Below, in pieces: positions 806 through 61,744 of a stretch of DNA of 64,000 nt. The stretch is from positions 3,471 to 67,470 of the forward strand of contig JAJYOL010000001.1 in assembly GCA_021796225.1 (NCBI GenBank). Reading direction: 5' to 3'. Source of the DNA: Candidatus Micrarchaeota archaeon. GTDB lineage: Archaea > Micrarchaeota > Micrarchaeia > Micrarchaeales > CABMGC01. The notes under the pieces are model-generated. The model was not told the DNA's origin, made no database searches, and saw nothing but the letters and a program-made list of their open reading frames with translations. The position numbers and the translations under genes are program-made. The stretch's first letter is position 1, and each line of letters starts with the position of its first letter.

Positions 806-1717
806 ATGGTTTCCAGTAAAAGAAAAACCATGCACAGGCTACAGTCCGCGATGGAATACCTCATGACCTACGGATGGGCGATATTAGTCATAGCGGTTGT
901 TCTAGGCGTTCTCTATTCCCTCGGGATATTCAGTCCTTCGAACTTCGCGCCGAAGGCTTCTCCGGGATCATGCCAAGTTTTCAGACCAAATGGGCCCGGG
1001 ACGGGTTATGACGTTAATCTGGAAGGGACGTGCAGTGGCGAACTGCCGGAGTATGTGGCACAGTTTATTCAAGGTAAAAATTCATGGATTGAACACACTT
1101 CCTCAGTACTTCCTAATGGCACTAGTAACGCCACCATAATGGCATGGATAAATCCGGAAGTACTTCAAGGTGGCGGATCATATTCCGGGATTGCCAGAAT
1201 AGATGGTGAAAGTTCAATACAAGGGAGTGGTCTCCTTTTGTCCATACAGAATGGTAGTGGGAGGCCTTCAATGGCTACATGGTCCAACGATTATGTTCCT
1301 TCAACTGGACCTAGTGTAAATTATAATTCATGGAATTTCATTGCTGTAACGGTAAATAACAAAATCGTTACTTTATACTTGAATAATCTGTCCGAAACTG
1401 GTACACTCGCTGTGCCGATGTCACTAAAGCAAAATGGGGCTATCAAAAATTTTGCAATAGGTTCTACTGATGATCCAGGCAGGCTTTTTTATGGCTCAAT
1501 CGCAAATGTACAAATTTACAATACCTCTCTCACAACAAATGATATTACTGCTCTTTATGACGAAGGAATAGGCGGTGCGCCAATCGACATCCAAAACCTT
1601 GTTGGGTGGTGGCCGCTCAACGGAAATGCGAACGACTACAGCGGAAACAACAATGACGGTGTGCCTACCAATGTCCTGTTCACCGGTTCGTGGCAGTCGG
1701 GATATACTGCTCCTTAA
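806..1717 (+). CDS. Class III signal peptide (type IV pilin-like) protein with LamG-like jellyroll, paralog 1
   Basis: N-terminus RLQ|SAMEYLMTYGWAILVIAVVLGV matches the archaeal prepilin signal and hydrophobic helix. Conserved Cys pair GSCQVF...EGTCSGELPEY. LamG_3-like motifs AQF.G..S.I ... ANVQIYN.SL...I.ALY. C-terminal WWPLNGNANDYSGNNNDG motif. The true start may be a downstream Met (MHRLQ...). Confidence 0.8.
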   Translation: MVSSKRKTMHRLQSAMEYLMTYGWAILVIAVVLGVLYSLGIFSPSNFAPKASPGSCQVFRPNGPGTGYDVNLEGTCSGELPEYVAQFIQGKNSWIEHTSSVLPNGTSNATIMAWINPEVLQGGGSYSGIARIDGESSIQGSGLLLSIQNGSGRPSMATWSNDYVPSTGPSVNYNSWNFIAVTVNNKIVTLYLNNLSETGTLAVPMSLKQNGAIKNFAIGSTDDPGRLFYGSIANVQIYNTSLTTNDITALYDEGIGGAPIDIQNLVGWWPLNGNANDYSGNNNDGVPTNVLFTGSWQSGYTAP

Positions 1718-2708: not shown

Positions 2709-3959
2709 ATGTTGATACGTATATGTAAGAAAGATGTGGTTATAACGGACTGTCCAAGAGCCTACAAATTCAGAATCTATCCCGATGCAGCAAGGCAGGG
2801 AGAGATAGACGAGAGACTAACTCTTGCGCAGCAGTTCTACAATAAACTTCTTGAGAAATCGATTCAATCATATAAGAACGGCAATCACAAAGTATCAATG
2901 GCGCAATTCAACAGATTCGTAAAGGAGGTAATATCGGAGGACAAGAAATTCCTGAAACTCTATTCGCAGACAAGATGCGAGATAGAATACAGGCTTATGA
3001 AGGCATACCAGAACTTCTTCAGGAGAATCAAGGAAGGGAACAAGAAGGCAGGTTTCCCAAGATTCAGGTCAAGAGACAGATACAAGTCAATAACTTATCC
3101 ACAGGACAACGGTTCCTTCTCAATTCACAAAGGAAGGCTCAGGGTTTCAAGGATAGGGACTATGCCGATAGAATTGCACAGGCCAATAAAAGGCAAAATA
3201 AAGACGCTTTCAATCAAGAGGGATGCCGATAAGTATTACGCAATTTTCACTGCTATGACTGAAATCAAGATTCCAGAAGTGGAAAATTCAAATCCGGTAG
3301 GAATAGACCTGGGGCTAAATTCATTCATCGCACTTTCTGACGGAACAAAGATAGAAAAACCGAAGTTCATGCAACAAAAGAGAAAGAGGATTGCCATCTG
3401 GCAAAAAAGAGTTGCAAGAAGAGATAGGGGTTCGAAGAGACGGGAGAAGGCAAAGGCAGGTCTCCGGAAGGCGTACGAACACATAACAAACCAATCGGAT
3501 GACTATCTGCACAAGTTGTCGAAAACACTGGTGACCTCAGGATACACTTCATTCGCAGTAGAAGACCTTCAAATTCAGAATATGGTAAAGAATCACAGGT
3601 TGGCAGGTGCGATTCATGACGCTTCATGGAACAGGTTCATCCAACTGCTCTCATACAAGGCTGAAAGTGCTGGTTTGAGTGTAGTCAAAGTGGATGCAAG
3701 GAACACCTCAAAGGAATGCAGTAATTGTGGCAACATCCAAGATATGCCACTCTCGGAGAGGACATACAACTGCCAGAGATGCGGAATGTCAAAAGACAGA
3801 GATATAAACGCATCGATAAACATATTGCATAGGGCAACTACCCTCGGACAGAGGGAAGGTCACGCTCAGGGAGAGAATGTAAGACCTCAACAGGAGGCAG
3901 TTCTCGAAGAACTGAGAACCGATAAAACACATCCTTTGCGGGATGCAGTGATTGCATGA
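2709..3959 (+). CDS. tnpB: IS200/IS605-family TnpB (OrfB, RuvC-like RNA-guided nuclease), solo copy
   Basis: N-terminal YKFRIYPD motif. Central RuvC-like region. C-terminal zinc finger CSNCG...CQRCG followed by DRDINASINI, typical of the TnpB RuvC-III region. Confidence 0.85.
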   Translation: MLIRICKKDVVITDCPRAYKFRIYPDAARQGEIDERLTLAQQFYNKLLEKSIQSYKNGNHKVSMAQFNRFVKEVISEDKKFLKLYSQTRCEIEYRLMKAYQNFFRRIKEGNKKAGFPRFRSRDRYKSITYPQDNGSFSIHKGRLRVSRIGTMPIELHRPIKGKIKTLSIKRDADKYYAIFTAMTEIKIPEVENSNPVGIDLGLNSFIALSDGTKIEKPKFMQQKRKRIAIWQKRVARRDRGSKRREKAKAGLRKAYEHITNQSDDYLHKLSKTLVTSGYTSFAVEDLQIQNMVKNHRLAGAIHDASWNRFIQLLSYKAESAGLSVVKVDARNTSKECSNCGNIQDMPLSERTYNCQRCGMSKDRDINASINILHRATTLGQREGHAQGENVRPQQEAVLEELRTDKTHPLRDAVIA

Positions 3960-4039: not shown

Positions 4040-5819
4040 GTGGATATCATGGCAGGCATTCCTGAAAACAAACGCGCATTTCTTTCAAATGGGCTGACTT
4101 CCGCGATAGAACTTTCCGGCTCTATCGATTGGTTTCCTTGTCCGCGTTTCGATTCCCCCTCTTTATTCAGTAAAATACTTGATGAAAAATCCGGGGGGAA
4201 GTTCTCAATCCGTCCGGAACAGGAATATTCCGTTGAGAGCGTATATCTCCCAAAGACTCTTGCACTGGAAAGCACCTTTACAACAAAGGACGGGAAATTG
4301 AAACTTACGGATTTTATGCCAATAGGCGTGCCTTCGATAATTCGGATGTTTGAATCAGAAATTCCTTTCATAGCGGAAATAGATCCTATCTTCGACAATG
4401 CCATGACACGCCCATCCATTGAGGAGTTGGAACAGGGTTACGTATTCAAAAATTACAAAACGTCAGAAAGTTTTGAGGTCCGCTTTACCGGAAACTATGA
4501 GATATTAGGGCGGGGTCTCGTAAGATTTCTTCCCGGAAATGGGCACATACTCTCCATATATTTCAAAAACTTCAAATACGGCCTTTTCAGCAAGAAGGGT
4601 TTCGTATATCCATTTCCAAAAGAGGCTCTTGGGATAACCACGGAATATTGGGAGAGCCAGGTATCTGCAGCACGCGACGTGAAAAATTTTACGGATGCGT
4701 ATTACAGGTCTATAGCTGTAATGATAGGGCTCATGTATTTTCCATCGGGCGGAATTATAGCGGCTCCAACCTCATCGATACCGGAAATAATCGGGCAGAG
4801 CAGGAATTGGGACTACCGTTACGTGTGGGTAAGGGATTCTGCATATGCGATAGAGGCTCTTGCAAATGCGGGTCTTGTATCGAAAGCTTCCAGAATACTT
4901 AATTTTCTGATAAGCGTTCTCGACCCATCATCAAAGAGCTTTGATCATCCTCTTTTTCAGATAGACGGCACCGCCCCCCCCTCCAGAGGAAGAATTGGGA
5001 TGGCTGCAGGGATACAAATCGTCAAGACCCGTACGCATCGGCAATGCGGCATATCAGCAGGTCCAAATGGATTGCGAAGGAGCGTTCATCGACGCTTTGC
5101 ATACGTATGTGGCTAAAACACAGGATTTCAATTATCTTAAAGAGAACATGTGGGCCGTGCATTCGATAGCGAAATGGACGGAATCGTCATGGAAATTGGA
5201 CGGTACTTCATTATGGGAAGAACGCGAAGTAGGCAGGCATTACGTTCATTCGAAGGTCATGTGCTGGGTGTCCATGGACAGGGCGGCAAAAATGGCGCAA
5301 ATGCTGGAAAACAACACTGAAGCTGCCAAATGGCACGCGGAAGCCGACAAAATAAAGAAAGACATTTTGGAAAAAGGGATCTCGAAGACGCATGGCGGAT
5401 TTACCAAATATTATGACGGAGAAGAAACGGATTCATCCCTGCTTCTGCTTCCCCTCTACGGATTTGTCGATGCAAATGATCCTGTATTTTCAAAAACGCT
5501 GCGTCAGATAGAAAAGGAATTGATTACAAAGGAAGGGCTCATGATTCGATACAAATCCGACATGATGGGCAGCATAGTAAACCCGTTTACGCTTCTGAAC
5601 GCATGGCTGGCAAGAGTCTACATAAAACGTGGCGAAATCGACAAGGCTAAGGCAACAATAGACACCATGCTGAGTTATGCCAACGATCTGCTCCTTTTTG
5701 CAGAGCATGTAAATGCCGAGACAAGGGAACCTCTTGGGAATTTCCCGCAACTCTTTCCACATGCTGGTTTAGTACAGGCAATACTTGAATACGAGGATGC
5801 AGTTTCCTCTAAAAAGTAG
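4040..5819 (+). pseudogene. GH15 glucoamylase-family glycoside hydrolase, interrupted by a +1 frameshift in a C8 homopolymer (4974..4981)
   Basis: The N-terminal SIDWFPCPRFDSPSLF region matches archaeal GH15. The C-terminal part continues in another frame with PPPEEELGWLQGYKSSRPVRIGNAAYQQVQMDCEG (GH15 motif) and then DYRYVWVRDS. The two ORFs, 4040..5116 and 4995..5819, overlap. Confidence 0.7.
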
Positions 5820-15048: not shown

Positions 15049-15152
15049 AACAAGGGTTTCCCTTTTCTGTTTAAATAATCTTTTCATTTATGCCCTTTAA
15101 TCTGTGTTTTCAACCGACAACATCTTTATTTACTTTTCACTGTATGGTACTC

Positions 15153-16040
15153 ATGAAGATCATGAAAGTGCGTGTATTACGTTTCAAAAGCAATACCTTA
15201 ACCAAACTCCAATCGGCAATGGAGTATCTGATGACTTACGGGTGGGCAATACTAGTCATTGCGGTTGTTCTAGGCGTTCTCTATTCCCTCGGGATATTCA
15301 GTCCTTCAAACTTCGCACCTAAGGCGTCTCCTGGTTCATGTCAGATATTTCGACCGAATGGTCCTGGAACGAATTACGATATAAATCTCGAAGGAACGTG
15401 CAGCGGCGAACTGCCGGAATATACCGCTCAGTTTAACGGTGCCAGCGCTTACATATCGTTGTCTTCCTCCGCTCCATCAAAAAGCTATACGCAACTAAGT
15501 GTTTCCGCATGGGTTACTAAACCTGCAGACACGTCAAGAAATGAAATTCTGAATTTTTTCGGTTTTTATTTTAATGTGCAGCAAGGAAATGAAGCATGCC
15601 TTTACGTAAATAATATCAATACAGGATATTTGTGTTCAACTCCTTCCTTAATATCAGGATATAATTTCCTTACAGCAACACTAAACGGCAGTACCGAAAC
15701 CGTTTATGTGAACGGCAAGCTTTCCAATACTACAACTGTTTCAGGGACCGGATCTGGGGTTCTTGGGGGAACGGTTGGCGTATGTTCCTATTGCGGAAAT
15801 ACGGATTATTTCGACGGGCAAATAGCAAACATACAATTTTACAATGCCTCACTAAATCAGAACAGCATAACCGCCCTTTACGATGAAGGCATAGGCGGTG
15901 CACCTGTTGACATTCAGAATCTCGTAGACTGGTGGCCGCTGAACGGAAATGCGAACGACTACAGCGGAAACAACAATGACGGTGTACCTACCAATGTACT
16001 ATTCACTGGATCGTGGCAGTCAGGATATACGTCACCATGA
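15153..16040 (+). CDS. Class III signal peptide pilin-like protein with LamG-like jellyroll, paralog 2
   Basis: Same conserved N-terminus (KLQSAMEYLMTYGWAILVIAVVLGV...GSCQIFRPNGPGTNYDINLEGTCSGELPEY) and C-terminus (NLVDWWPLNGNANDYSGNNNDGVPTNVLFTGSWQSGYTSP). Variable core. Divergently transcribed from ksgA. Confidence 0.8.
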   Translation: MKIMKVRVLRFKSNTLTKLQSAMEYLMTYGWAILVIAVVLGVLYSLGIFSPSNFAPKASPGSCQIFRPNGPGTNYDINLEGTCSGELPEYTAQFNGASAYISLSSSAPSKSYTQLSVSAWVTKPADTSRNEILNFFGFYFNVQQGNEACLYVNNINTGYLCSTPSLISGYNFLTATLNGSTETVYVNGKLSNTTTVSGTGSGVLGGTVGVCSYCGNTDYFDGQIANIQFYNASLNQNSITALYDEGIGGAPVDIQNLVDWWPLNGNANDYSGNNNDGVPTNVLFTGSWQSGYTSP

Positions 16041-49892: not shown

Positions 49893-50783
49893 ATGTTACG
49901 GGGAAGAAGCACATCAAAAATCCAGAGCGCAATGGAGTATCTGATGACCTATGGTTGGGCCATACTCGTCATTGCCGTTGTCCTTGGAGTTCTCTATTCA
50001 CTCGGAATTTTCAGTCCTTCGAACTTTGCACCGAAGGCACAACCCGGATCGTGTCAGGTATTCCGCCCGAACGGCCCCGGCACAAGTTATGATGCGAATC
50101 TCGAAGGAACGTGCAGCGGCGAACTGCCTGAATACGTGGCAAATTTCAGCGGAAGGTCGTCAATATCAAACATTAACGTGAGTTACCTTAAAACAAACAA
50201 CGGAACGATAAGTTTGTGGTATAAAGGAACCGGCACAGGAAGACAATTCATTTGGTCAATGGGCACCGACGGCAGTGCAAACGATATGGATTTGATATCG
50301 ACAAGCGGTACCGGCAGCAACGTTATTTTTTATTTTAGGGTTTTCAACGTTTCCGATGTTCAGTTCAATACTAACGTAAGAGTCGATCCGTATTCCCCTT
50401 CAACTTTTTACAATCTAGTTGCACAATGGACCAGCACAAATTCTATTTATTTGTACCTGAACGGCATCATGATTAGCGATAAAGGCGGCGTAGTATATCC
50501 GCAATCTTTCGGATGTCCTGAAAAGATCGGAGGATCCTGTAACGGCCAAGGGCTGATAGCAGACCTTGCAAACGTGCAGGAATACAATACTTCTTTATCA
50601 ACAAATGAAATACAGGCACTCTACCAGGAAGGAATAGGTGGTGCACCGATTAATCTGCAACATTTGGTGGCATGGTTCCCGCTCAACGGCAATCCGAATG
50701 ATTACTCTGGCAACAATAATGACGGTATACCTGTTAATGTAATCTATACTGGAACATGGCAAGGAGGGTATTCCGCACCATAG
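49893..50783 (+). CDS. Class III signal peptide pilin-like LamG protein, paralog 3 (first gene of the tandem triplet)
   Basis: Conserved N-terminus (SKIQSAMEYLMTYGWAILVIAVVLGV...) and C-terminus (HLVAWFPLNGNPNDYSGNNNDGIPVNVIYTGTWQGGYSAP). Confidence 0.8.
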   Translation: MLRGRSTSKIQSAMEYLMTYGWAILVIAVVLGVLYSLGIFSPSNFAPKAQPGSCQVFRPNGPGTSYDANLEGTCSGELPEYVANFSGRSSISNINVSYLKTNNGTISLWYKGTGTGRQFIWSMGTDGSANDMDLISTSGTGSNVIFYFRVFNVSDVQFNTNVRVDPYSPSTFYNLVAQWTSTNSIYLYLNGIMISDKGGVVYPQSFGCPEKIGGSCNGQGLIADLANVQEYNTSLSTNEIQALYQEGIGGAPINLQHLVAWFPLNGNPNDYSGNNNDGIPVNVIYTGTWQGGYSAP

Positions 50784-50792
50784 GTAAGGCAC

Positions 50793-51677
50793 ATGAAATC
50801 AAAACTTCAATCCGCAATGGAATACCTCATGACCTATGGATGGGCAATACTCGTCATTGCGGTTGTCCTTGGCGTTCTTTATTCACTCGGAATATTCAGT
50901 CCTTCGAACTTTGCGCCGAAGGCACAGCCTGGAAGCTGCCAGGTCTTCAGACCTAACGGCCCTGGAACGAATTATGATATAAATCTTGAAGGCACGTGCA
51001 GCGGTGAACTGCCGCAGTATGTCGCACAGTTTGACGGGGCATCGAGTTATTTCAAAACTCTTGGATTTTCTACTATGCATCCAATAACATCATCATCTCA
51101 AATATCTATAGCGTTTTGGATGTACCTTACAGGTTACCCTCCAAACACACTTGACAATAATTTCATCCAAATCAAATCCGATGCGGGCGGTATAAGTTAT
51201 AGGATAGCATATAGCGTTGCAGGAAACGGAGCATGTGCGAAAAATACAGGAATATGGGTTCAAATATGCTCAAGCAACGCCATTCCGTTGAATAACTGGA
51301 CGGAGATAGTATACGCTTATAATGCACTCTCAATGCAAATATATTTTAATGGTAAATATTCTGACGGAGGAAATTGGACAGCAATAAATAACAACTCAGG
51401 AAGCATGTATTTTTTTGTCCCTGATTTTGCAACTGGTTATCAGATCCCTCCTTATCGTATTGCCAATGTCCAAATTTACAACACGTCACTATCCGCAAAT
51501 GATATTTCCGCACTGTATCAGTCAGGCATCGGGGGATCTCCTATCCATATACAAAATTTGATTGCATGGTATCCATTAAATGGAAACACAAACGATTATT
51601 CTGGTAATAATGAGGAAGGGTTTCCAGTTAACATGATGTATGTCGGTACATGGCAAGGAGGGTATTCCGCACCATAG
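50793..51677 (+). CDS. Class III signal peptide pilin-like LamG protein, paralog 4
   Basis: Conserved termini; core AQFDGASSYF...AFWMY...NVQIYNTSLSANDISALY (LamG_3-like). Confidence 0.8.
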   Translation: MKSKLQSAMEYLMTYGWAILVIAVVLGVLYSLGIFSPSNFAPKAQPGSCQVFRPNGPGTNYDINLEGTCSGELPQYVAQFDGASSYFKTLGFSTMHPITSSSQISIAFWMYLTGYPPNTLDNNFIQIKSDAGGISYRIAYSVAGNGACAKNTGIWVQICSSNAIPLNNWTEIVYAYNALSMQIYFNGKYSDGGNWTAINNNSGSMYFFVPDFATGYQIPPYRIANVQIYNTSLSANDISALYQSGIGGSPIHIQNLIAWYPLNGNTNDYSGNNEEGFPVNMMYVGTWQGGYSAP

Positions 51678-51686
51678 GTAAGGCAC

Positions 51687-52526
51687 ATGAAATCAAAACT
51701 TCAATCCGCAATGGAATATCTCATGACATATGGATGGGCTATACTAGTCATTGCGGTTGTTCTAGGTGTTTTGTACTCGCTAGGAATTTTTAGTCCGTCA
51801 AACTTCGCACCGAAGGCACAGCCTGGAAGCTGTCAAGTATTCAGACCGAACGGCCCTGGAACGAATTACGATATAAATCTTGAAGGAACGTGCAGCGGCG
51901 AACTGCCTGAATATGCTGCGCAATTCGATGGCAAATCAAGTTACATAAATGCCGGCGAGAGTTCGCTGCTGCAATCGAATACTTTTACTATAACGGCATG
52001 GGTAAATCCCGCAACGCTCGATTTAAGCGGAAATGCCATAACCGGCAGCTCTTCTCCAAGCGGCGTCGAGTTCAGACTGGCAAATTCCGGGGGGAAATTA
52101 TACCTGCAAGCACTCAAGGAAGACATAACTGGAATAGGGACATCTACAGGATACGTATCTGCAGGCACTTGGAGTTTTGTCGCAGTAACATACAATTCAA
52201 GTGCAAATGGTGCTTATGCCTATTACGTAAATGGGGCAAATGCAGGTTCCGGAAACAACTTGCAAACTTTCTCATGGAGCAGCCAATACATAGGAAAACA
52301 ATCAAGCAACACGGAATACTTCAACGGCATGCTCTCAAATGTGCAAATATACAACGTTTCGTTATCGGGAAATGATGTTGCCGCTTTGTACGCCGAAGGC
52401 ATAGGGGGAACACCTACAGATTTACGGCACATATGCGGCTGGTGGCCGCTGAACGGAAATGCGAACGATTACAGCGGAAACAACAACGACGGCATACCAA
52501 CTAACATTATTTACAAAAATACCTAG
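51687..52526 (+). CDS. Class III signal peptide pilin-like LamG protein, paralog 5, 3'-truncated by IS insertion
   Basis: Ends ...NDGIPTNIIYKNT* and lacks the conserved TG(S/T)WQ(S/G)GY(S/T)AP tail. A remnant of the tail sequence is found after the IS right end, at about 54352..54380. Confidence 0.75.
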   Translation: MKSKLQSAMEYLMTYGWAILVIAVVLGVLYSLGIFSPSNFAPKAQPGSCQVFRPNGPGTNYDINLEGTCSGELPEYAAQFDGKSSYINAGESSLLQSNTFTITAWVNPATLDLSGNAITGSSSPSGVEFRLANSGGKLYLQALKEDITGIGTSTGYVSAGTWSFVAVTYNSSANGAYAYYVNGANAGSGNNLQTFSWSSQYIGKQSSNTEYFNGMLSNVQIYNVSLSGNDVAALYAEGIGGTPTDLRHICGWWPLNGNANDYSGNNNDGIPTNIIYKNT

Positions 52527-52632: not shown

Positions 52633-53025
52633 ATGGGATACAAACATAAGCGAACAAGTGTGGCAATGGTAAACTACCACATAGTATTCTGTCCGAAATA
52701 TAGGAGAAAGTTATTGGTAGGTGGCATAAAGAAAAGGCTTGAAGAGGTTATGTTTGATGTCGCACTTGAAAATGGGTGGAAGATTATTTCAAAAGAGGTC
52801 ATGCCAGATCACGTCCATCTATTCGTCTCTGCTGATGTAAGGTCAAGACCAGAGATAGTAGTCAAGAGATTCAAAGGCAGAAGTTCAAGGTATCTGCGCA
52901 ATGAGTTTCCAGAGCTCTTGAAGATGCCAACATTGTGGACTCGCTCATACTTTCTTTCAACCGCAGGAAATGTGTCCGCTGCGACAATCAAGAAATATAT
53001 AGAACAACAATGGGATAAAGTATGA
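52633..53025 (+). CDS. tnpA: IS200-type Y1 HUH transposase TnpA
   Basis: 130 aa; HUH motif HVHLFV; catalytic Tyr region TLWTRSYF. Confidence 0.85.
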   Translation: MGYKHKRTSVAMVNYHIVFCPKYRRKLLVGGIKKRLEEVMFDVALENGWKIISKEVMPDHVHLFVSADVRSRPEIVVKRFKGRSSRYLRNEFPELLKMPTLWTRSYFLSTAGNVSAATIKKYIEQQWDKV

Positions 53026-53261: not shown

Positions 53262-54284
53262 ATGATGATTCTAACCTTCAAAATAAAACACGAAAGAAAT
53301 TTCTCCCCTGAGTTAGGAAAGGCAAGAAAGATTGCGGAGTATGTCTTGACACACAAAACAAGGTCTTCTAAGGATGTAAAACAATTCGGTCTAAAATCCG
53401 CAATCGCAAATCAGATACTCAGGAAATATGGAAACAACGAAACAATCAAGAATGTCAATAAGATAAAACTGACTGTTCCTTCTCAGTCGGTCAACGCAAA
53501 CAAAGAGCATAGGACAATAGAAATTCCGTGTCTAAAGTTCACCGCGCCATATAACTTCAGGAACGACTACGATAAGATAAACCAGATAGAACTGGACAAC
53601 GAATACGCCTATGTTTCAGTAAATGTAAAGGAAGAGCCACAAATAGTTCCTCAAACATGGATAGGCGTAGACAGAAACACAACAGGTCATATTGCAGTAG
53701 CAGGAAATCCAGAGACAGGGAAGATTCTGAAACTCGGAAAGGAGGCACTCCATATTCACAAGAAATACAGAAACATAAGAAGGAAGATGCAAAGAGAAGG
53801 AAAGTATAGCGTGGTAAAACGGATAAAGGACAGGGAATCAAGAATAATCAAGAACATAAACCACAACGTCTCAAAGGCAATAGTTGAGGCTGCAAAGGAA
53901 AATAATGCAGGGATAAAGTTGGAGAAACTGGAAGGCATAAGAAAAAACAGGAAGCACATAAGGAACTTCAACTACGGTCTGCATAGTTGGTCGTTCTACC
54001 AATTGCAGACGTTCATTGAATACAAAGCAAAATTATATGGAATACCTCTAACCTACGTGGAGCCTAAAAACACGTCCAAGGACTGTTCAAGGTGCGGAAA
54101 CGAAGGTATTAGAGATTCAAAAAAATTCGTGTGCCAGTCGTGTGGACACGTAGACCATGCCGACGCAAATGCATCGTTCAATATATCGCAGCGTCCTCCA
54201 ATTGGAGAAGGCAGAAGTCAATTGAATGCAGACAGGGATGCATTCAAGGGCAGCACTGATACGCCCCAAGGTGCAACTCTATGA
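53262..54284 (+). CDS. tnpB: IS605-family TnpB (RuvC-like nuclease with C-terminal zinc finger)
   Basis: RuvC-like motifs; zinc finger CSRCGN...CQSCGH; DADANASFNI. Confidence 0.85.
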   Translation: MMILTFKIKHERNFSPELGKARKIAEYVLTHKTRSSKDVKQFGLKSAIANQILRKYGNNETIKNVNKIKLTVPSQSVNANKEHRTIEIPCLKFTAPYNFRNDYDKINQIELDNEYAYVSVNVKEEPQIVPQTWIGVDRNTTGHIAVAGNPETGKILKLGKEALHIHKKYRNIRRKMQREGKYSVVKRIKDRESRIIKNINHNVSKAIVEAAKENNAGIKLEKLEGIRKNRKHIRNFNYGLHSWSFYQLQTFIEYKAKLYGIPLTYVEPKNTSKDCSRCGNEGIRDSKKFVCQSCGHVDHADANASFNISQRPPIGEGRSQLNADRDAFKGSTDTPQGATL

Positions 54285-54352
54285 ACGCAGAGACACCAAA
54301 CCAAAGAGGAACCCCACGAATTTATTCGTGGGAGGATGTCAGACTGCTTCAT
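54285..54352 (+). ncRNA. Putative omegaRNA/right-end RNA of the IS605 element (hairpin plus GGGAGGATGTCAGACT)
   Basis: Same architecture as the 3' flank of the solo tnpB at 3960..4010. Confidence 0.45.
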
Positions 54353-54477
54353 GGGCTTCAACGTATAGCGCTCCTTGAAAGTTGCATTTTAACGAAATTC
54401 TGTCAATAAAGCGTATAAATGCACTCATTTAAATACCACCTCGGTCATAATATGTATCGACCACAGAGGGTTCGAAT

Positions 54478-56387: not shown

Positions 56388-56431
56388 CTTTACACCTAAG
56401 ATGTATTCACAAAAAAATGTTAAGTGATAGA

Positions 56432-59392
56432 ATGAAAAGTCTAAATGCAAAGAGAATAGCCGCTGTTGCGGCAAGTTTGGTAATGGGCATAGCCGTTGCT
56501 GGACAGGGTGTAACCTTCGGTAACATCCCTATCATAAGCAACCAGGGCCAGCCAGTCGTGCAGATAGTAGTGGGAAGCCACGCAGCACCTAGCGACGGAG
56601 TTGTCGCTGCGAACATCGCTGCGGTAATAGGCAACCTGGCACTTACGACCCAGAACGTAACCGCAACGGTCTCGACCGTTAATGGAACGTCCGCATGTGT
56701 CGTAACAACGCCTAAGTGCACACTGACAAACCAGCAGGTTTGGCTTGGCGAAAGTGGACTGTCCGCACCTAGCGGATCGTACTCATTCGGTGCGTTGATT
56801 GGTTCTGTAATAAACAGGGCTATACAGCTCAACACGCCTGCCAACACGAAGTCTCTGCAGGGATCAAGCTCACAATATGTGTATCCTGAATCCACTTCTT
56901 TGACTTCAACGCCTGCACCTAGCCCTTACTACGGAGTCGGTGTTCCACTGACAAACGCAGTAACTGCTAACTACAATGGAGGAGGCGTCGGCTTCGGCTC
57001 AACATTCACGAGCGGAGGTTCAGACAACATACTTCAGGTAAGCAGCGCACAGCTCCCTGCACTTTTGGGCAATTCTGGCTCAAACGGTGAAAGTGAGTAT
57101 CTGTGGCTTACGGGTTTCCCTGTATACAACCAGGAATCTACGGTAAACAACTTCCAGGTATTCGATGCCGGAGGTGCATACCAGATGACCTTTAACAAGC
57201 CTATACAGAACCAGACATCATCTGGCTCAACAAGCATAAATGTTCCTATAACATTGCTTGGACAGAGTTGGACAATAGTGAACGAAACTGGAGCAGGAAA
57301 GACCTCTTCAGTATCAAGCCAGCAGTTCACGACTGGTGGTAGCTTGTGGCTCGCATCTTCATTGACCCCTCTGCAGACTGTATACGTTGGTCACAACGTT
57401 TCAAACAGCTCTGTCGGCGGATTCAATGTAGAACTTACGGACCTTGGTCAGCCTAACTCCAACGGTGTAAGCACTGCAGCTTTGCAGGTTTACTACAACG
57501 GAGTGCCTACGAACACAACGCAGGTCAATGCGTACTCAACACAGAAGTTCAACGTTTCCGGACACATCTTGTATGTGCACGTAAACCAGACCTTCGCAGG
57601 GTTGTATGCATACCAGAAGTGGGCAAAGGTTCAGCTCTATTCCAACCTCGTACAGTTGAACAACGGTAAGAAGTTCAACCAGACTGGCGACAATGGATGG
57701 TACACGAACCTGTGGTGGACAAACACGTCAACATCAGGACAGGCAGATGCATTGCAGAGCATTGTAATATACAATACCTCTCCAACAACGCTGTCAACCG
57801 GACAAAGCTTGACGTTCTTGCCTAACCCTTCAAAGTATCAGCTTACTTTCGTAGGAGACAACCTCGGCAACAACTATGATCCGATACAGGCGCAGACTGC
57901 GTATTCGTCATCATTGCAGTACCAGAACCTCGGTACGGTAAGCGATGCACCTACAAGCCTGCAGATATCCAACATAACGGAACCTGCACAGGAACTTGTA
58001 GTCACAAGCTCAATACCGAACGCATTCAGCTACGCGGGACAGACAAGCTCAAGCGTAACATACGACTTGACTCCATACCAGCTCAATGAATACGGCAACT
58101 CAGTGACGACCAACACGATCGACACAGTGGCATGGAACTTTGCGGCTGCAAGCAGCACTGGTGCATGGATATCAAGCACGAACCCTGTTACTGTCAGAGT
58201 AACTGGATACGCAAGCAATACTGCAACTGCGATGACTTCCGACCCTGTAACATTCGATTCGATGTCAGGGAACGCCGTGCTTAGCACGAACCTGTACAAT
58301 GTTACTGGAATACAGCTCCAGCAGACACTTCCTGCAGGAACGTTGAGCATATATGCTGGAAACAGCGTAGGTCTCAATGGTGCAACGAACGTGATTTCAG
58401 GAACGCAGCTCGCTGCAAGCTTGACAGCAACAACGTCAGCACCTGGTCCGTCAATAGTGTATTCACTGAGCGGCAAGAACTATGATTACCTTGCCCCTGT
58501 AAGCGGAAACACTGTGATCTACAACCAGCAGAACGGTCAGTCAACAAGCAACTTCGTGCTTGCGACCGCGACGCCTTCTGGAACGTCTGCATCAACGTAC
58601 TTCACCTATACTCTGAACGAGATAGCGGTACCGACGAACACGGCTGCACAGGACTCGCTTGCATTCGGAATAGACAACACGACTGCTGGAATACAGCAGG
58701 GTGGAGCTCTATACCAGCTGAACTACTCTAAGACTGGTACGCACAACAACGCGACGTACACCTCAACGCAGGGAACGTCACTCAGCGTGAAGCAGGGCTT
58801 CGTGACTGAACGCGGAAGCAAGGTCGCTTCAATAACGCCTTCAAGCGTTACATTCGACCTGGCAAAGGCCGTCGACCAGTTGGAGTTCGTAGTAGGGCCG
58901 GCAACGACCAATACGACAGCATTGTCAACAACGACAAACTATGGTCCATACACAGTTGGACAGCAGACAAACCTGGCTAACGTAACCATAGCGGAGGTCA
59001 ATGCAACATGTGCATTCACCGCAACAAGCTGCTCAGTAAACACGAGCGACTTGAATGCAGTGCCTTCAGTGTCGCAGGCAGTAGTGTCTTCACACCTCAA
59101 CACGGCGACAACGCCTCTTGCGGTGCTTGACGCGAATGCAAACAATGCATCCACGCTCGTCGTAGTAGGAAGCGCGTACGTGAACTCTGTCGCAGGACAG
59201 ATATTCGCGGACAACCCACAGTTCGCTTCAAGCTTCGACAACGGAGGAGTGTCAGGGCCTAATGCGGTCACAGTGCAGTCGTTCGGTGCAAACAGAATCC
59301 TGGTAGCAGGGTTCAACGCAAGCCAGACGGTAGAAGCTGGAAACCAGTTCATAAACCAGCTCCTGACGCAGGCAAGCAGCACCACGGGCTAA
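56432..59392 (+). CDS. Large secreted surface glycoprotein, candidate S-layer protein
   Basis: Sec signal peptide (MKSLNAKRIAAVAASLVMGIAVAGQ). About 985 aa. Extremely Thr/Ser/Asn/Gln/Val-rich with many N-x-S/T sequons. A strong terminator follows. Confidence 0.6.
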   Translation: MKSLNAKRIAAVAASLVMGIAVAGQGVTFGNIPIISNQGQPVVQIVVGSHAAPSDGVVAANIAAVIGNLALTTQNVTATVSTVNGTSACVVTTPKCTLTNQQVWLGESGLSAPSGSYSFGALIGSVINRAIQLNTPANTKSLQGSSSQYVYPESTSLTSTPAPSPYYGVGVPLTNAVTANYNGGGVGFGSTFTSGGSDNILQVSSAQLPALLGNSGSNGESEYLWLTGFPVYNQESTVNNFQVFDAGGAYQMTFNKPIQNQTSSGSTSINVPITLLGQSWTIVNETGAGKTSSVSSQQFTTGGSLWLASSLTPLQTVYVGHNVSNSSVGGFNVELTDLGQPNSNGVSTAALQVYYNGVPTNTTQVNAYSTQKFNVSGHILYVHVNQTFAGLYAYQKWAKVQLYSNLVQLNNGKKFNQTGDNGWYTNLWWTNTSTSGQADALQSIVIYNTSPTTLSTGQSLTFLPNPSKYQLTFVGDNLGNNYDPIQAQTAYSSSLQYQNLGTVSDAPTSLQISNITEPAQELVVTSSIPNAFSYAGQTSSSVTYDLTPYQLNEYGNSVTTNTIDTVAWNFAAASSTGAWISSTNPVTVRVTGYASNTATAMTSDPVTFDSMSGNAVLSTNLYNVTGIQLQQTLPAGTLSIYAGNSVGLNGATNVISGTQLAASLTATTSAPGPSIVYSLSGKNYDYLAPVSGNTVIYNQQNGQSTSNFVLATATPSGTSASTYFTYTLNEIAVPTNTAAQDSLAFGIDNTTAGIQQGGALYQLNYSKTGTHNNATYTSTQGTSLSVKQGFVTERGSKVASITPSSVTFDLAKAVDQLEFVVGPATTNTTALSTTTNYGPYTVGQQTNLANVTIAEVNATCAFTATSCSVNTSDLNAVPSVSQAVVSSHLNTATTPLAVLDANANNASTLVVVGSAYVNSVAGQIFADNPQFASSFDNGGVSGPNAVTVQSFGANRILVAGFNASQTVEAGNQFINQLLTQASSTTG

Positions 59393-59611: not shown

Positions 59612-61744
59612 ATGCCTAAGCACATGCGCAAACGCGCGCATACATACGTCAAAGACGCTTCAGCTAAAAGCAGGAGGCATAATCACACATTCGCCCAGGC
59701 AGCAATAGAATATCTTACCACTTACGGCTGGGCAATCCTAATTATAGCAATTGTCATATCCCTCATGTATGCTTTCGTTTTCGCACCTTCATTCGTAGTG
59801 CCGCAGAAATGTACTTTCGGATCGGGCGCATACTGCAACGACGTAATTCTCGGTACTGCGACAAACACGTCAAAAATGGTTTTGTTGCTTTCGAATTCGC
59901 GGCAATACGCCTTAAATAATCCGGGAATTATCTTATCTATAGAGAATGTAGGAAACGTTACCGGGACTTGTTATCCTTCATACGTGCTTCCTGGAGGCAC
60001 GATGGTGTGCAATGCCACAATACCTGCAGGATATTCTGCAGGATCTATAGTATCGTCTGAAATGTATCTGAGCGGAACAACTTGCACGTCAAATTCCAAT
60101 TTGTGTACCTCAAATCCATTACAGGTCTTTTCGGGTTCCGTTGTTGCGCATTCGCAGCCCATCCTCGCATCAGAACCAGTATCGATATCACTGTATGCCG
60201 CAAATCTGACTCCTGCGATAAATTCCGGCCAGACCATGGTAACAGCAACCGTTACGCTTCTCGGTTATCCTCTTCCAGGTGCAACTGTAAACTTCACCGA
60301 AAACGCAGGCACGAATTTCACGCTTACCCCTTCACAATCAACCACTAACACGAACGGAAAAGCTGTCAGTTACCTGTCGAGTACGAAGACGGGTCCTGTC
60401 ACCGTAAACGCGACATTTGCAGGACATACTTCGTCAGTAACGCTCACGTATCAGTTGCAGAAGTACTACACAACCCAGGAATATACTACAACCGGTTCCG
60501 GTTCGGGAAACGGCACATATACGACGCAGCAATACGCCGTGTTGTGCCAGCCTACCGTTTCATTCTCCGGATTAACAACCATTACCGTTACGTGGTGCGG
60601 CGGAACTCCTCCCTATACTGTTACACTGTATTCCGGTTCGTCTCCAAATTGCGCGCTTGATACAAATGTCGTCGCAGTAAACACAGGGGTTACCACAACG
60701 TCAACATCATTTTCAATATCTACAGGAAGTGCATATTACTGTGCCACCGTTACGGATTCATCTTCATCACAACAGAGTGAAGGCTCCGGTTCTGGCGTGT
60801 CTTCAACTACATCCATTGCGACCGTAGTCACAAACGCTGCAACCAACGCTGCAACCAATGCGGCAACGAATGCAGCCACGACAATCACAAACGCTGCAAC
60901 CAATGCGGCAACGACAATTACAAACGCGGCAACGAACGCAGCAACCAATGCCGCAACAAATGCCGCAACCAGCGGTGCAACTGGGAAGGAAGGGACATGC
61001 ACATATTCAACACCTGTGGCAATTGTCGGATGTGTTTCAGGACCTTATAACTCTACCGAAGAAACATTCCTCCCATGCTCTTGCCTTGGATCCGGTGGAA
61101 CGTGTCAACCTCCATCCTATTCTGTAGGGTATGGTTATTCCGGAACCTACGAAGCCTGCGTGTATCCTTCGACTTCAACAACTGTTGCAACCATTATCAC
61201 CAATGCGGCGACGAATGCAGCAACCAATGCCGCAACCAACGCGGCTACCCATACAACGAACGCGGCTACCCATACAACGAACGCGGCTACTCATTCTACT
61301 AACGCAGCAACTCATACAACGAACGCAGCTTCAGTCAGTGGCGGAGGATCTGTATACGGAAGCACGATGATACTGCTCGCAAACGGGACGTACATACCTG
61401 CAAAGAATGTACAAGTCGGATCTATTTTGGAATCTTATAATTTCGTGCTAAACGAAACGGCACCTTCGGCTGTCATATACGTAACAACTACCATGGTGAA
61501 CAACACCTATGTGATAAACGGAAACCTTTCAGTAGATGCAGACGAAATAATATTCCTCAACGGTGCGTGGAACAGGGCATTCAATGCGAAGGTCGGCGAC
61601 GTGCTTTATGATCCTGTGACAAACAGCAACGTAACCATATACAATATATCCGTGAAGAACACTGGCGGAATCGTGTATGATTTCTATCTGGCTCCGAACA
61701 ACAATTTCGTTGCCGCAGGCTATCTCATAGATGCGAAAGTATAA
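59612..61744 (+). CDS. Pilin-like (class III signal peptide) surface protein with TNAA tandem repeats, Cys-rich module and degenerate C-terminal Hint-like domain
   Basis: N-terminus HTFAQ|AAIEYLTTYGWAILIIAIV, analogous to the pilin paralogs. Two blocks of 12-nt repeats encoding (TNAA)n. C-terminal roughly 130 aa matches the Hint block A pattern (S/T-MILLANGTYIPAKNVQVGSIL) and the terminal YDFYLAPNNNFVAAGYLID. It lacks the Cys nucleophile and the TxxH motif. Confidence 0.6.
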   Translation: MPKHMRKRAHTYVKDASAKSRRHNHTFAQAAIEYLTTYGWAILIIAIVISLMYAFVFAPSFVVPQKCTFGSGAYCNDVILGTATNTSKMVLLLSNSRQYALNNPGIILSIENVGNVTGTCYPSYVLPGGTMVCNATIPAGYSAGSIVSSEMYLSGTTCTSNSNLCTSNPLQVFSGSVVAHSQPILASEPVSISLYAANLTPAINSGQTMVTATVTLLGYPLPGATVNFTENAGTNFTLTPSQSTTNTNGKAVSYLSSTKTGPVTVNATFAGHTSSVTLTYQLQKYYTTQEYTTTGSGSGNGTYTTQQYAVLCQPTVSFSGLTTITVTWCGGTPPYTVTLYSGSSPNCALDTNVVAVNTGVTTTSTSFSISTGSAYYCATVTDSSSSQQSEGSGSGVSSTTSIATVVTNAATNAATNAATNAATTITNAATNAATTITNAATNAATNAATNAATSGATGKEGTCTYSTPVAIVGCVSGPYNSTEETFLPCSCLGSGGTCQPPSYSVGYGYSGTYEACVYPSTSTTVATIITNAATNAATNAATNAATHTTNAATHTTNAATHSTNAATHTTNAASVSGGGSVYGSTMILLANGTYIPAKNVQVGSILESYNFVLNETAPSAVIYVTTTMVNNTYVINGNLSVDADEIIFLNGAWNRAFNAKVGDVLYDPVTNSNVTIYNISVKNTGGIVYDFYLAPNNNFVAAGYLIDAKV
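60829..60969 (+). repeat. 12-nt coding tandem repeat (ACn AAy GCn GCn = TNAA), block 1
   Basis: Direct inspection. About 11 to 12 units with synonymous variation and TTIT interruptions. Confidence 0.8.
61196..61330 (+). repeat. 12-nt coding tandem repeat (TNAA / THTTNAA), block 2
   Basis: Direct inspection. Units ACCAATGCGGCG..., then a 21-nt superunit ACC CAT ACA ACG AAC GCG GCT repeated 4 times. Confidence 0.8.

Follow-up and report, generated by a model that had tools for sequence, protein, structure and literature searches.

The stretch analysed here, called the window throughout, comprises 64,000 nucleotides of a Candidatus Micrarchaeota genome (assembly GCA_021796225.1, contig JAJYOL010000001.1, positions 3,471 to 67,470 of the forward strand). 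Near its beginning lies a gene for a pilin-like protein with a LamG domain, whose C-terminal tail resembles the segment that opens the domain in canonical LamG_3 (concanavalin-like) proteins. The open reading frame (ORF) and its translation, together with the sources given in brackets, define the following layout.

806 to 1717, plus strand: pilin-like LamG protein of 303 residues (ORF and translation).
806 to 841, plus strand: leader peptide of the putative class III (prepilin-type) signal, residues 1 to 12 (ORF and sequence).
842 to 937, plus strand: mature N-terminus QSAMEYLMTYGW... with Glu at +5 and hydrophobic pilin helix, residues 13 to 44 (sequence, AlphaFold2, homolog conservation).
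938 to 1054, plus strand: conserved Cys56-Cys76 loop, SCQVFRPNGPGT.YD.NLEGTCSGELPEYV / ...NLEGTC, residues 45 to 83 (conservation, hhalign, AlphaFold2).
1055 to 1564, plus strand: LamG_3 jellyroll body, residues 84 to 253, beginning at AQF... and ending with the last canonical strand ANVQIYN plus the helix NDITALYDEG, hypervariable among homologs.
1565 to 1597, plus strand: conserved return linker IGGAPIDIQN(L), residues 254 to 264 (conservation; fixed body-to-motif spacing of 9 residues in relatives).
1598 to 1714, plus strand: putative C-terminal closure element, the 39-residue tail LVGWWPLNGNANDYSGNNNDGVPTNVLFTGSWQSGYTAP, residues 265 to 303, homologous to the canonical LamG_3 N-terminal lead-in.

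A preliminary description of this DNA had assigned the N-terminus to a class III signal and a pilin helix, and this assignment was borne out by the motif at residues 13-44 (QSAMEYLMTYGWAILVIAVV, read from the sequence) and by a predicted helix at residues 15-38. As in archaeal type IV pilin-like proteins, a short charged leader, a cleavage context (...KRKTMHRL followed by QSAMEYLMTYGWAILVIAVVLGVLYSL) with Gln at +1 and Glu at +5, and a hydrophobic helix of about 20 residues are present. Since no Pfam class III signal family matched the protein at E-values up to 10, the signal is assigned by its motif. The database copy of the protein (P0001; 100% identity over 97% of the query) has 295 residues and begins at Met9 (MHRLQSAMEY...); because of this, translation may start at Met9 (position 830), which would leave a leader of only 4 residues. 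The loop that follows contains C56, G74, C76, and P81 as invariant residues in an alignment of 122 homologs, and Cys56 and Cys76 may form a disulfide hairpin. A shortened copy of this loop was also noted ahead of the second body of the relative P0295.

The body opens at VAQF, ends with the canonical LamG_3 ending SIANVQIYNTSLTTNDITALYDEG, and has the concanavalin-like beta-sandwich fold of LamG-like jellyrolls. Pfam Laminin_G_3 (PF13385) matched residues 90-247 with profile positions 2-150 of 151 (E = 1.3e-17, 64.8 bits, cut-off 27.6). In the linker, G254 is invariant and I255, G256, G257, and P259 are conserved in at least 90% of homologs. The tail opens with LVGWWPLNGNANDYSGNNNDG... and the protein terminates with ...ANVQIYNTSLTTNDITALYDEGIGGAPIDIQNLVGWWPLNGNANDYSGNNNDGVPTNVLFTGSWQSGYTAP before the stop codon, as quoted in the preliminary description; the positions given there (1447-1717) correspond to residues 215-303 approximately plus the stop, while the tail proper occupies 1598-1714. 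A C-terminal sorting or anchor signal was considered for the tail and rejected, as the tail has no hydrophobic segment.

For comparison with canonical domains, 120 real canonical LamG_3 proteins were gathered with a self-written, consensus-like query (Pfam-validated at 171 bits), from which 112 full domains including the lead-in were extracted; the profile consisted of these 112 real domains with the consensus as master. In canonical bacterial proteins the lead-in does precede the body, as had been stated for LamG_3 domains of the PF13385 type, but PF13385 itself omits it: on the canonical-type consensus the Pfam model starts at residue 46, past the 45-residue lead-in. For this reason, the Pfam match to the target is uninformative on the tail, the target domain is complete and colinear by Pfam's definition, and an HHpred alignment against PF13385 with the tail moved forward, which had been proposed as a check, cannot detect a permutation.

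In profile-profile alignments (hhalign), the tail matched the canonical lead-in with a score of 27.8 (E = 6e-6), far beyond 100 column shuffles (mean 9.5, sd 2.0, maximum 15.3), which upholds the earlier claim that the canonical LamG start sits at the extreme C-terminus. In native order, the Micrarchaeota family profile covered canonical positions 44-202 only (score 170-177). When the tail (residues 259-303) was put ahead of the body (78-258), the alignment against this profile ran from end to end over canonical positions 2-202 (191 columns, score 192), with LVGWWPLNGN--ANDYSGNNNDG opposite canonical LVAHWKFDEGSGTTAADSSGNGNHG. The closure motif (LVxxWxFDEGSG..DSSGNGNxGT), N-terminal to the body in canonical members, is C-terminal to it in the target; at the sequence level, the homologous segments are present in swapped order, as in a circular permutant. 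A complete LamG N-terminal strand upstream of AQF, named beforehand as the observation that would speak against such an arrangement, was not found: the Cys-loop region scored 8.8 against the canonical lead-in in hhalign, which is noise, and a reading of the Cys loop as a degenerate lead-in is unsupported. Neither the tail nor the Cys-loop region, each used as a separate query against PDB sequences, returned a match at E-values up to 10.

An AlphaFold2 (AF2) monomer model of the target, calculated from the 122-sequence alignment, had a mean predicted local distance difference test score (pLDDT) of 77 and a predicted template modelling score (pTM) of 0.74. The pLDDT was 91 for the pilin helix, 44-58 for the Cys loop, and 80-97 for the body, in which the last strand was predicted at residues 230-238 and the helix at 244-253. 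Whether the tail inserts in cis or in trans had been posed as a question for AF2; the monomer model places a tail strand at 265-269 in the cis sheet (pLDDT 82 for the block 261-270), with weaker strands at 286-288 and 290-293 and a pLDDT of 42-56 beyond residue 270. Prediction of a tail-deleted protein did not lower the confidence of the body.

Fold comparisons with solved structures, performed with and without the tail, separated two groups, i.e. folds with strands after the helix (the first seven below) and folds with N-terminal lead strands (the last three).

PAPP-A LG, 8hgg_C: fold alignment 189 with tail, 159 without.
PTX3, 7zl1_B: 184 with tail, 164 without.
SAP, 1gyk_A: 176 with tail, 159 without.
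CRP-like, 4pbp_A: 177 with tail, 156 without.
Neurexin-1beta, 2r1d_A: 167 with tail, 140 without.
Laminin LG5, 1qu0_A: 159 with tail, 135 without.
4dqa_A: 215 with tail, 185 without.
CBM40, 4c1w_A: 158 with tail, 157 without.
CBM40, 6er4_A: 157 with tail, 158 without.
TSPN, 1za4_A: 155 with tail, 154 without.

Deletion of the tail cost 14-31 aligned residues against pentraxin/LNS folds, and the structures with strands after the helix also dropped by 2-4 Z units. The same split was seen in PDB sequence alignments, where pentraxin chains ran 28-36 residues past the end of the target helix and 5hon, 4qvs, and 4c1w only 3-8. In the model, the tail strands are predicted to belong to the sandwich and to superpose, in sequential order, on the C-terminal strands of solved pentraxin/LNS jellyrolls.

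Protein searches returned more than 3000 relatives, of which the named ones belong to Candidatus Micrarchaeaceae or Micrarchaeia; most of the best 120 end exactly 36 residues past WW. At least 542 loci were confirmed when species-representative genomes were scanned, with several per genome, and 77 of the best 80 loci came from Micrarchaeota metagenome-assembled genomes. The family is Micrarchaeota-wide. A profile search of 1.84 billion representatives gave 11,672 proteins at E-values up to 1e-30, and the head of this list consisted mostly of giant tandem LamG arrays.

Bodies (B) and closure motifs (M) were mapped with hidden Markov models on multi-domain relatives. Each body should have one closure motif, on either side, if the tail and the lead-in are structurally the same element, and this is what was seen. 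In the pilin-type proteins with two or three modules (P0043, P0295, P0367, P0349, and P0369), a motif stands 9 residues behind every body; behind internal motifs come Thr/Gly/Ser linkers or unrelated domains, while the proteins themselves terminate with a motif. About 32 clusters of 1100-residue proteins follow the order B-9-M-(about 79)-M-(about 6)-B-9-M-(about 18)-B-9-M-(about 18)-B-16-end, in which bodies and motifs both number four. Closure comes from behind in the first body and from the front in the others, and no tail follows the final body. We also noted that in P0259-P0382 (approximately 40 clusters of about 1100 residues) the insert of about 79 residues is Ig-like and the N-terminus pilin-like, e.g. 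LQIALEFMIIFSF in P0274.

Besides the gene at 806-1717 (paralog A), four paralogs lie in the window, and all five have the same order of segments, as the preliminary description had claimed for every paralog.

15090 to 16040, plus strand: paralog B, same architecture, full tail.
49893 to 50783, plus strand: paralog C, first of three tandem genes, full tail.
50793 to 51677, plus strand: paralog D, full tail.
51687 to 52526, plus strand: paralog E, third tandem gene, tail cut after ...PTNIIY by an IS200/IS605 insertion, premature end ...GIPTNIIYKNT followed by a stop.
52633 to 53025: TnpA (PF01797) of the IS200/IS605 element in the tail-coding region of paralog E.
53262 to 54284: TnpB (PF07282) of the same element.

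Positions 54331-54378 still encode the displaced tail end of paralog E (...SWASTYSAP, then a stop). In paralog B, the ORF at 15090 has a long N-terminal extension that is probably untranslated.

Among these paralogs (806-1717, 15090-16040, 49893-52526) the LamG bodies are barely alignable, while the ends are conserved. The same contrast was found across the 122 homologs: mean column entropy was 0.40 bits for the helix, 0.73 for the Cys loop, 0.71 for the linker, 0.85 for the tail, and 1.10 for the last strand and helix, as opposed to 2.81 bits for the body. Conserved segments enclose a hypervariable body. Of the 21 columns that are invariant over the entire protein, seven are tail positions (W268, P270, L271, D277, Y278, G280, and N281). 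The N-terminal block of 75 residues shares 92-97% protein identity between paralogs at a DNA identity of 77-85%, and in the tail core (WWPLNGNANDYSGNN) up to 17 of 45 nucleotides differ with 2 amino-acid changes only. Conserved protein together with diverged DNA indicates that the ends are held by purifying selection; recent gene conversion was rejected on these grounds.

The homology of tail and lead-in, the lack of an upstream lead-in, the predicted cis strand, the superposition on solved C-terminal strands, the rule of one motif per body, and the purifying selection form the basis for reading the tail as the closure element of its own jellyroll, and the arrangement as an intramolecular circular permutation relative to canonical LamG_3, with a probability of about 0.7. 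According to this model, the class III signal and the hydrophobic helix would serve membrane extraction and filament assembly. A three-strand closure element (LVxxWxFDEGSG..DSSGNGNxGT...W), encoded behind the last canonical strand and helix, would be carried back by the conserved 11-residue linker and complete the jellyroll of the same polypeptide, and the resulting strand order would be the natural order of pentraxins, LNS/LamG, and PAPP-A LG domains. Most likely, the permuted unit arose from a tandem LamG array of which one body and the lead-in of the next repeat were retained (permutation by duplication), a route to which the tandem arrays among the relatives point. The conserved helix, Cys loop, last strand, and tail may constitute a filament-proximal face, and the hypervariable body a face for binding ligands (host or glycan); the protein may be assembled into a pilus.

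Several observations weigh against a permutation of this kind. The body strand with which residues 265-269 would pair was not seen directly, and AF2 monomer predictions can return true donor strands to their own chain. Two thirds of the tail (273-283 and 294-303) have a pLDDT below 50 despite near-invariance, which may point to a function in addition to closure or to an alignment of little depth. The tail would take the structural position of the canonical N-terminal lead-in, but this equivalence is inferred and not measured, because a non-sequential superposition is needed for it. Approximately 10 of the clusters of 1100-residue proteins have only three detectable motifs for four bodies, the second motif being undetected. 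Finally, P0139, P0142, P0152, P0158, P0169, P0172, and P0234, which are membrane-anchored proteins with canonical-type LamG_3, combine lead-in and body with a partial C-terminal lead-in (...GGPVAHWRFDEGSGTT.YDSSGN..HG.LHE, then a stop). A motif at the C-terminus need not stand in for a missing lead-in, as the double motif of the P0139/P0152 type indicates.

These latter proteins also bear on the exchange of donor strands, which the preliminary description had placed beside circular permutation. Here, the C-terminal strand or strands would enter the LamG head of the neighbouring subunit, swapping into it or zipping onto it on top of a helix-driven type IV filament, and lock the filament like chaperone-usher pili; if true, strand swapping would give a rigid pilus with a hypervariable lectin coat, by which the cell would attach to its archaeal host. 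Apart from the motif without a cis vacancy in proteins with an N-terminal lead-in, such exchange would fit with the extreme conservation of a motif that is a free C-terminus in single-module proteins, with the low confidence of most of the tail in the monomer model, and with the unaffected confidence of the body after tail deletion. However, subunits of donor-strand filaments lack a cis strand and do not complement themselves, whereas residues 265-269 of the target are paired in the cis sheet of the monomer model (although AF2 can self-complement) and the conserved 11-residue linker, which resembles the pentraxin-type connection from helix to strand, allows the return. Furthermore, the tail superposes sequentially on C-terminal strands of monomeric solved jellyrolls, the internal tails of P0043, P0295, and P0367 are not free ends while each body has its own tail, and type IV filaments generally polymerise via their N-terminal helices, with no need for strand exchange. 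Of the two possibilities raised, permutation is favoured; donor-strand exchange gained no positive support and appears very improbable.

A division of roles within the tail is unlikely as well, albeit less so. Only the first strand (LVGWWPL) would close the jellyroll, and the Asn/Gly/Asp-rich loop together with the C-terminal 20 residues would be an exposed interaction site, e.g. for contacts with the filament core or a neighbour, metal binding, or modification. The drop in pLDDT from 82 at 261-270 to 42-56 beyond, the invariant D277, Y278, G280, and N281 within the low-confidence loop, the first body of P0295, which retains WWPLNGDTKDYSGSGNNGVPT alone ahead of its Gly/Ser linker, and the P0139-type proteins, which stop after lead-in position 28, are consistent with this. 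The 14-31 aligned residues lost against pentraxin/LNS folds, however, exceed a single strand of 5 residues, and the loop shows the same degree of conservation in canonical N-terminal lead-ins, in which it belongs to the domain. Most improbable of all is a vestige, i.e. the start of a lost second LamG repeat with neither structural nor functional role. Tandem arrays with a motif between bodies are abundant in the relatives, as such an origin would suggest, but the tail is fixed in length and near-invariant over more than 100 homologs at 45-65% overall identity, its DNA diverged synonymously while the protein sequence was conserved, it contains a confidently predicted strand, and no upstream element could close the fold otherwise.

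Compared with known systems, the probable intramolecular permutation sets the target apart from canonical Laminin_G_3 (PF13385; 5HON domain 4 of AbnA, and 4QVS), where the closure motif precedes the body and the chain ends 3-8 residues past the helix; in the target, the motif lies behind the helix and has no equivalent ahead of the body. Pentraxins, the LNS domains of neurexin, laminin, and agrin, and PAPP-A LG share the strand order of the target at 12-20% identity only, but their C-terminal strands lack the WWPLNGNANDYSGNNNDG signature and are not fused to a pilin helix, and pentraxins form rings. Concanavalin A and the legume lectins show that the same superfold tolerates moved termini. The permutation of concanavalin A is post-translational and occurs by transpeptidation, whereas that of the target would be genetic, with the closure element alone displaced and with tandem arrays able to yield a permuted unit among its relatives. 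In chaperone-usher pili, archaeal threads, and bundling pili, the donor strands are N-terminal. Like the subunits of these filaments, the target has a terminal beta-strand that could in principle complete the sandwich of a neighbour; unlike them, it has a return linker and a predicted cis completion, and its assembly would be helix-driven.

Among modular type IV pilins with a lectin module, one example is PilC of Streptococcus sanguinis (7OA7/7OA8; PMC9934059, PMC8179133). PilC is a bacterial, single-copy minor pilin with an extra Ig-like module and a galectin-like lectin module, whereas the target is archaeal and belongs to a permuted LamG_3 family with many hypervariable paralogs per genome. 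For Mia14, an expansion of LamG-like genes was described, some of them adjoining type IV pilus loci, and their involvement in interaction with the host was proposed (Golyshina et al. 2017; PMC5498576); the LamG-like proteins of Mia14/DPANN are of the same lineage and kind as the target, although that study does not detail a fusion to a class III signal or the position of a C-terminal closure motif. Makarova et al. (2016), on archaeal type IV pili, mention neither LamG nor DPANN, and a literature search on circular permutation of LamG or pentraxins found nothing relevant. LamG-containing Micrarchaeota proteins and lectin-bearing modular pilins are already known; the C-terminal closure motif, its family-wide fixation, and the rule of one motif per body were not found in the literature searched. 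The novel architecture for an archaeal pilin that had been anticipated is real as a modest structural variant, but a new mode of filament building was not shown, and the finding by itself reveals no new assembly mechanism.

The genes near the paralogs are housekeeping genes (fibrillarin, RtcB, tRNA synthetases, PCNA, and SRP54), and a Pfam scan of roughly 50 ORFs of the window detected no prepilin peptidase, assembly ATPase or platform protein, or other type IV pilus machinery. Two type IV pilus loci are reported for Mia14 (PMC5498576). The window also encodes, at 59612-61744, a further protein with a class III signal (AQAAIEYLTTYGWAILIIAIV..., 710 residues), whose gene lies immediately downstream of that for an S-layer protein (56417-59392, PF05124); the 710-residue protein has a Big_1 Ig-like domain and long low-complexity repeats of the TNAATNAAT type. 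A stand-alone TnpB/OrfB_IS605-like gene (PF01385, PF07282) occupies 2709-3959, some 1 kb downstream of paralog A. It is followed at 4040-5819 by a glycoside hydrolase family 15 gene in two overlapping ORFs of different frames (4040-5116, profile positions 4-94; 4995-5819, profile positions 102-339), probably reflecting a frameshift, a pseudogene, or a sequencing error.

If the LamG head includes the final 39 residues, domain boundaries, expression constructs, and structure prediction are affected, since Pfam stops 56 residues short of the C-terminus. The family would provide a clean natural case of circular permutation at the genetic level, for which tandem arrays that are plausible precursors still exist, and the rule of one motif per body is useful for parsing giant multi-LamG proteins. 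Micrarchaeota are obligate episymbionts whose attachment to the host is poorly understood. With five copies in the 64-kb window, the family pairs a hypervariable LamG body with strict conservation of the pilin helix, the Cys loop, and the closure tail, as would be expected of a diversifying adhesin on a conserved scaffold.
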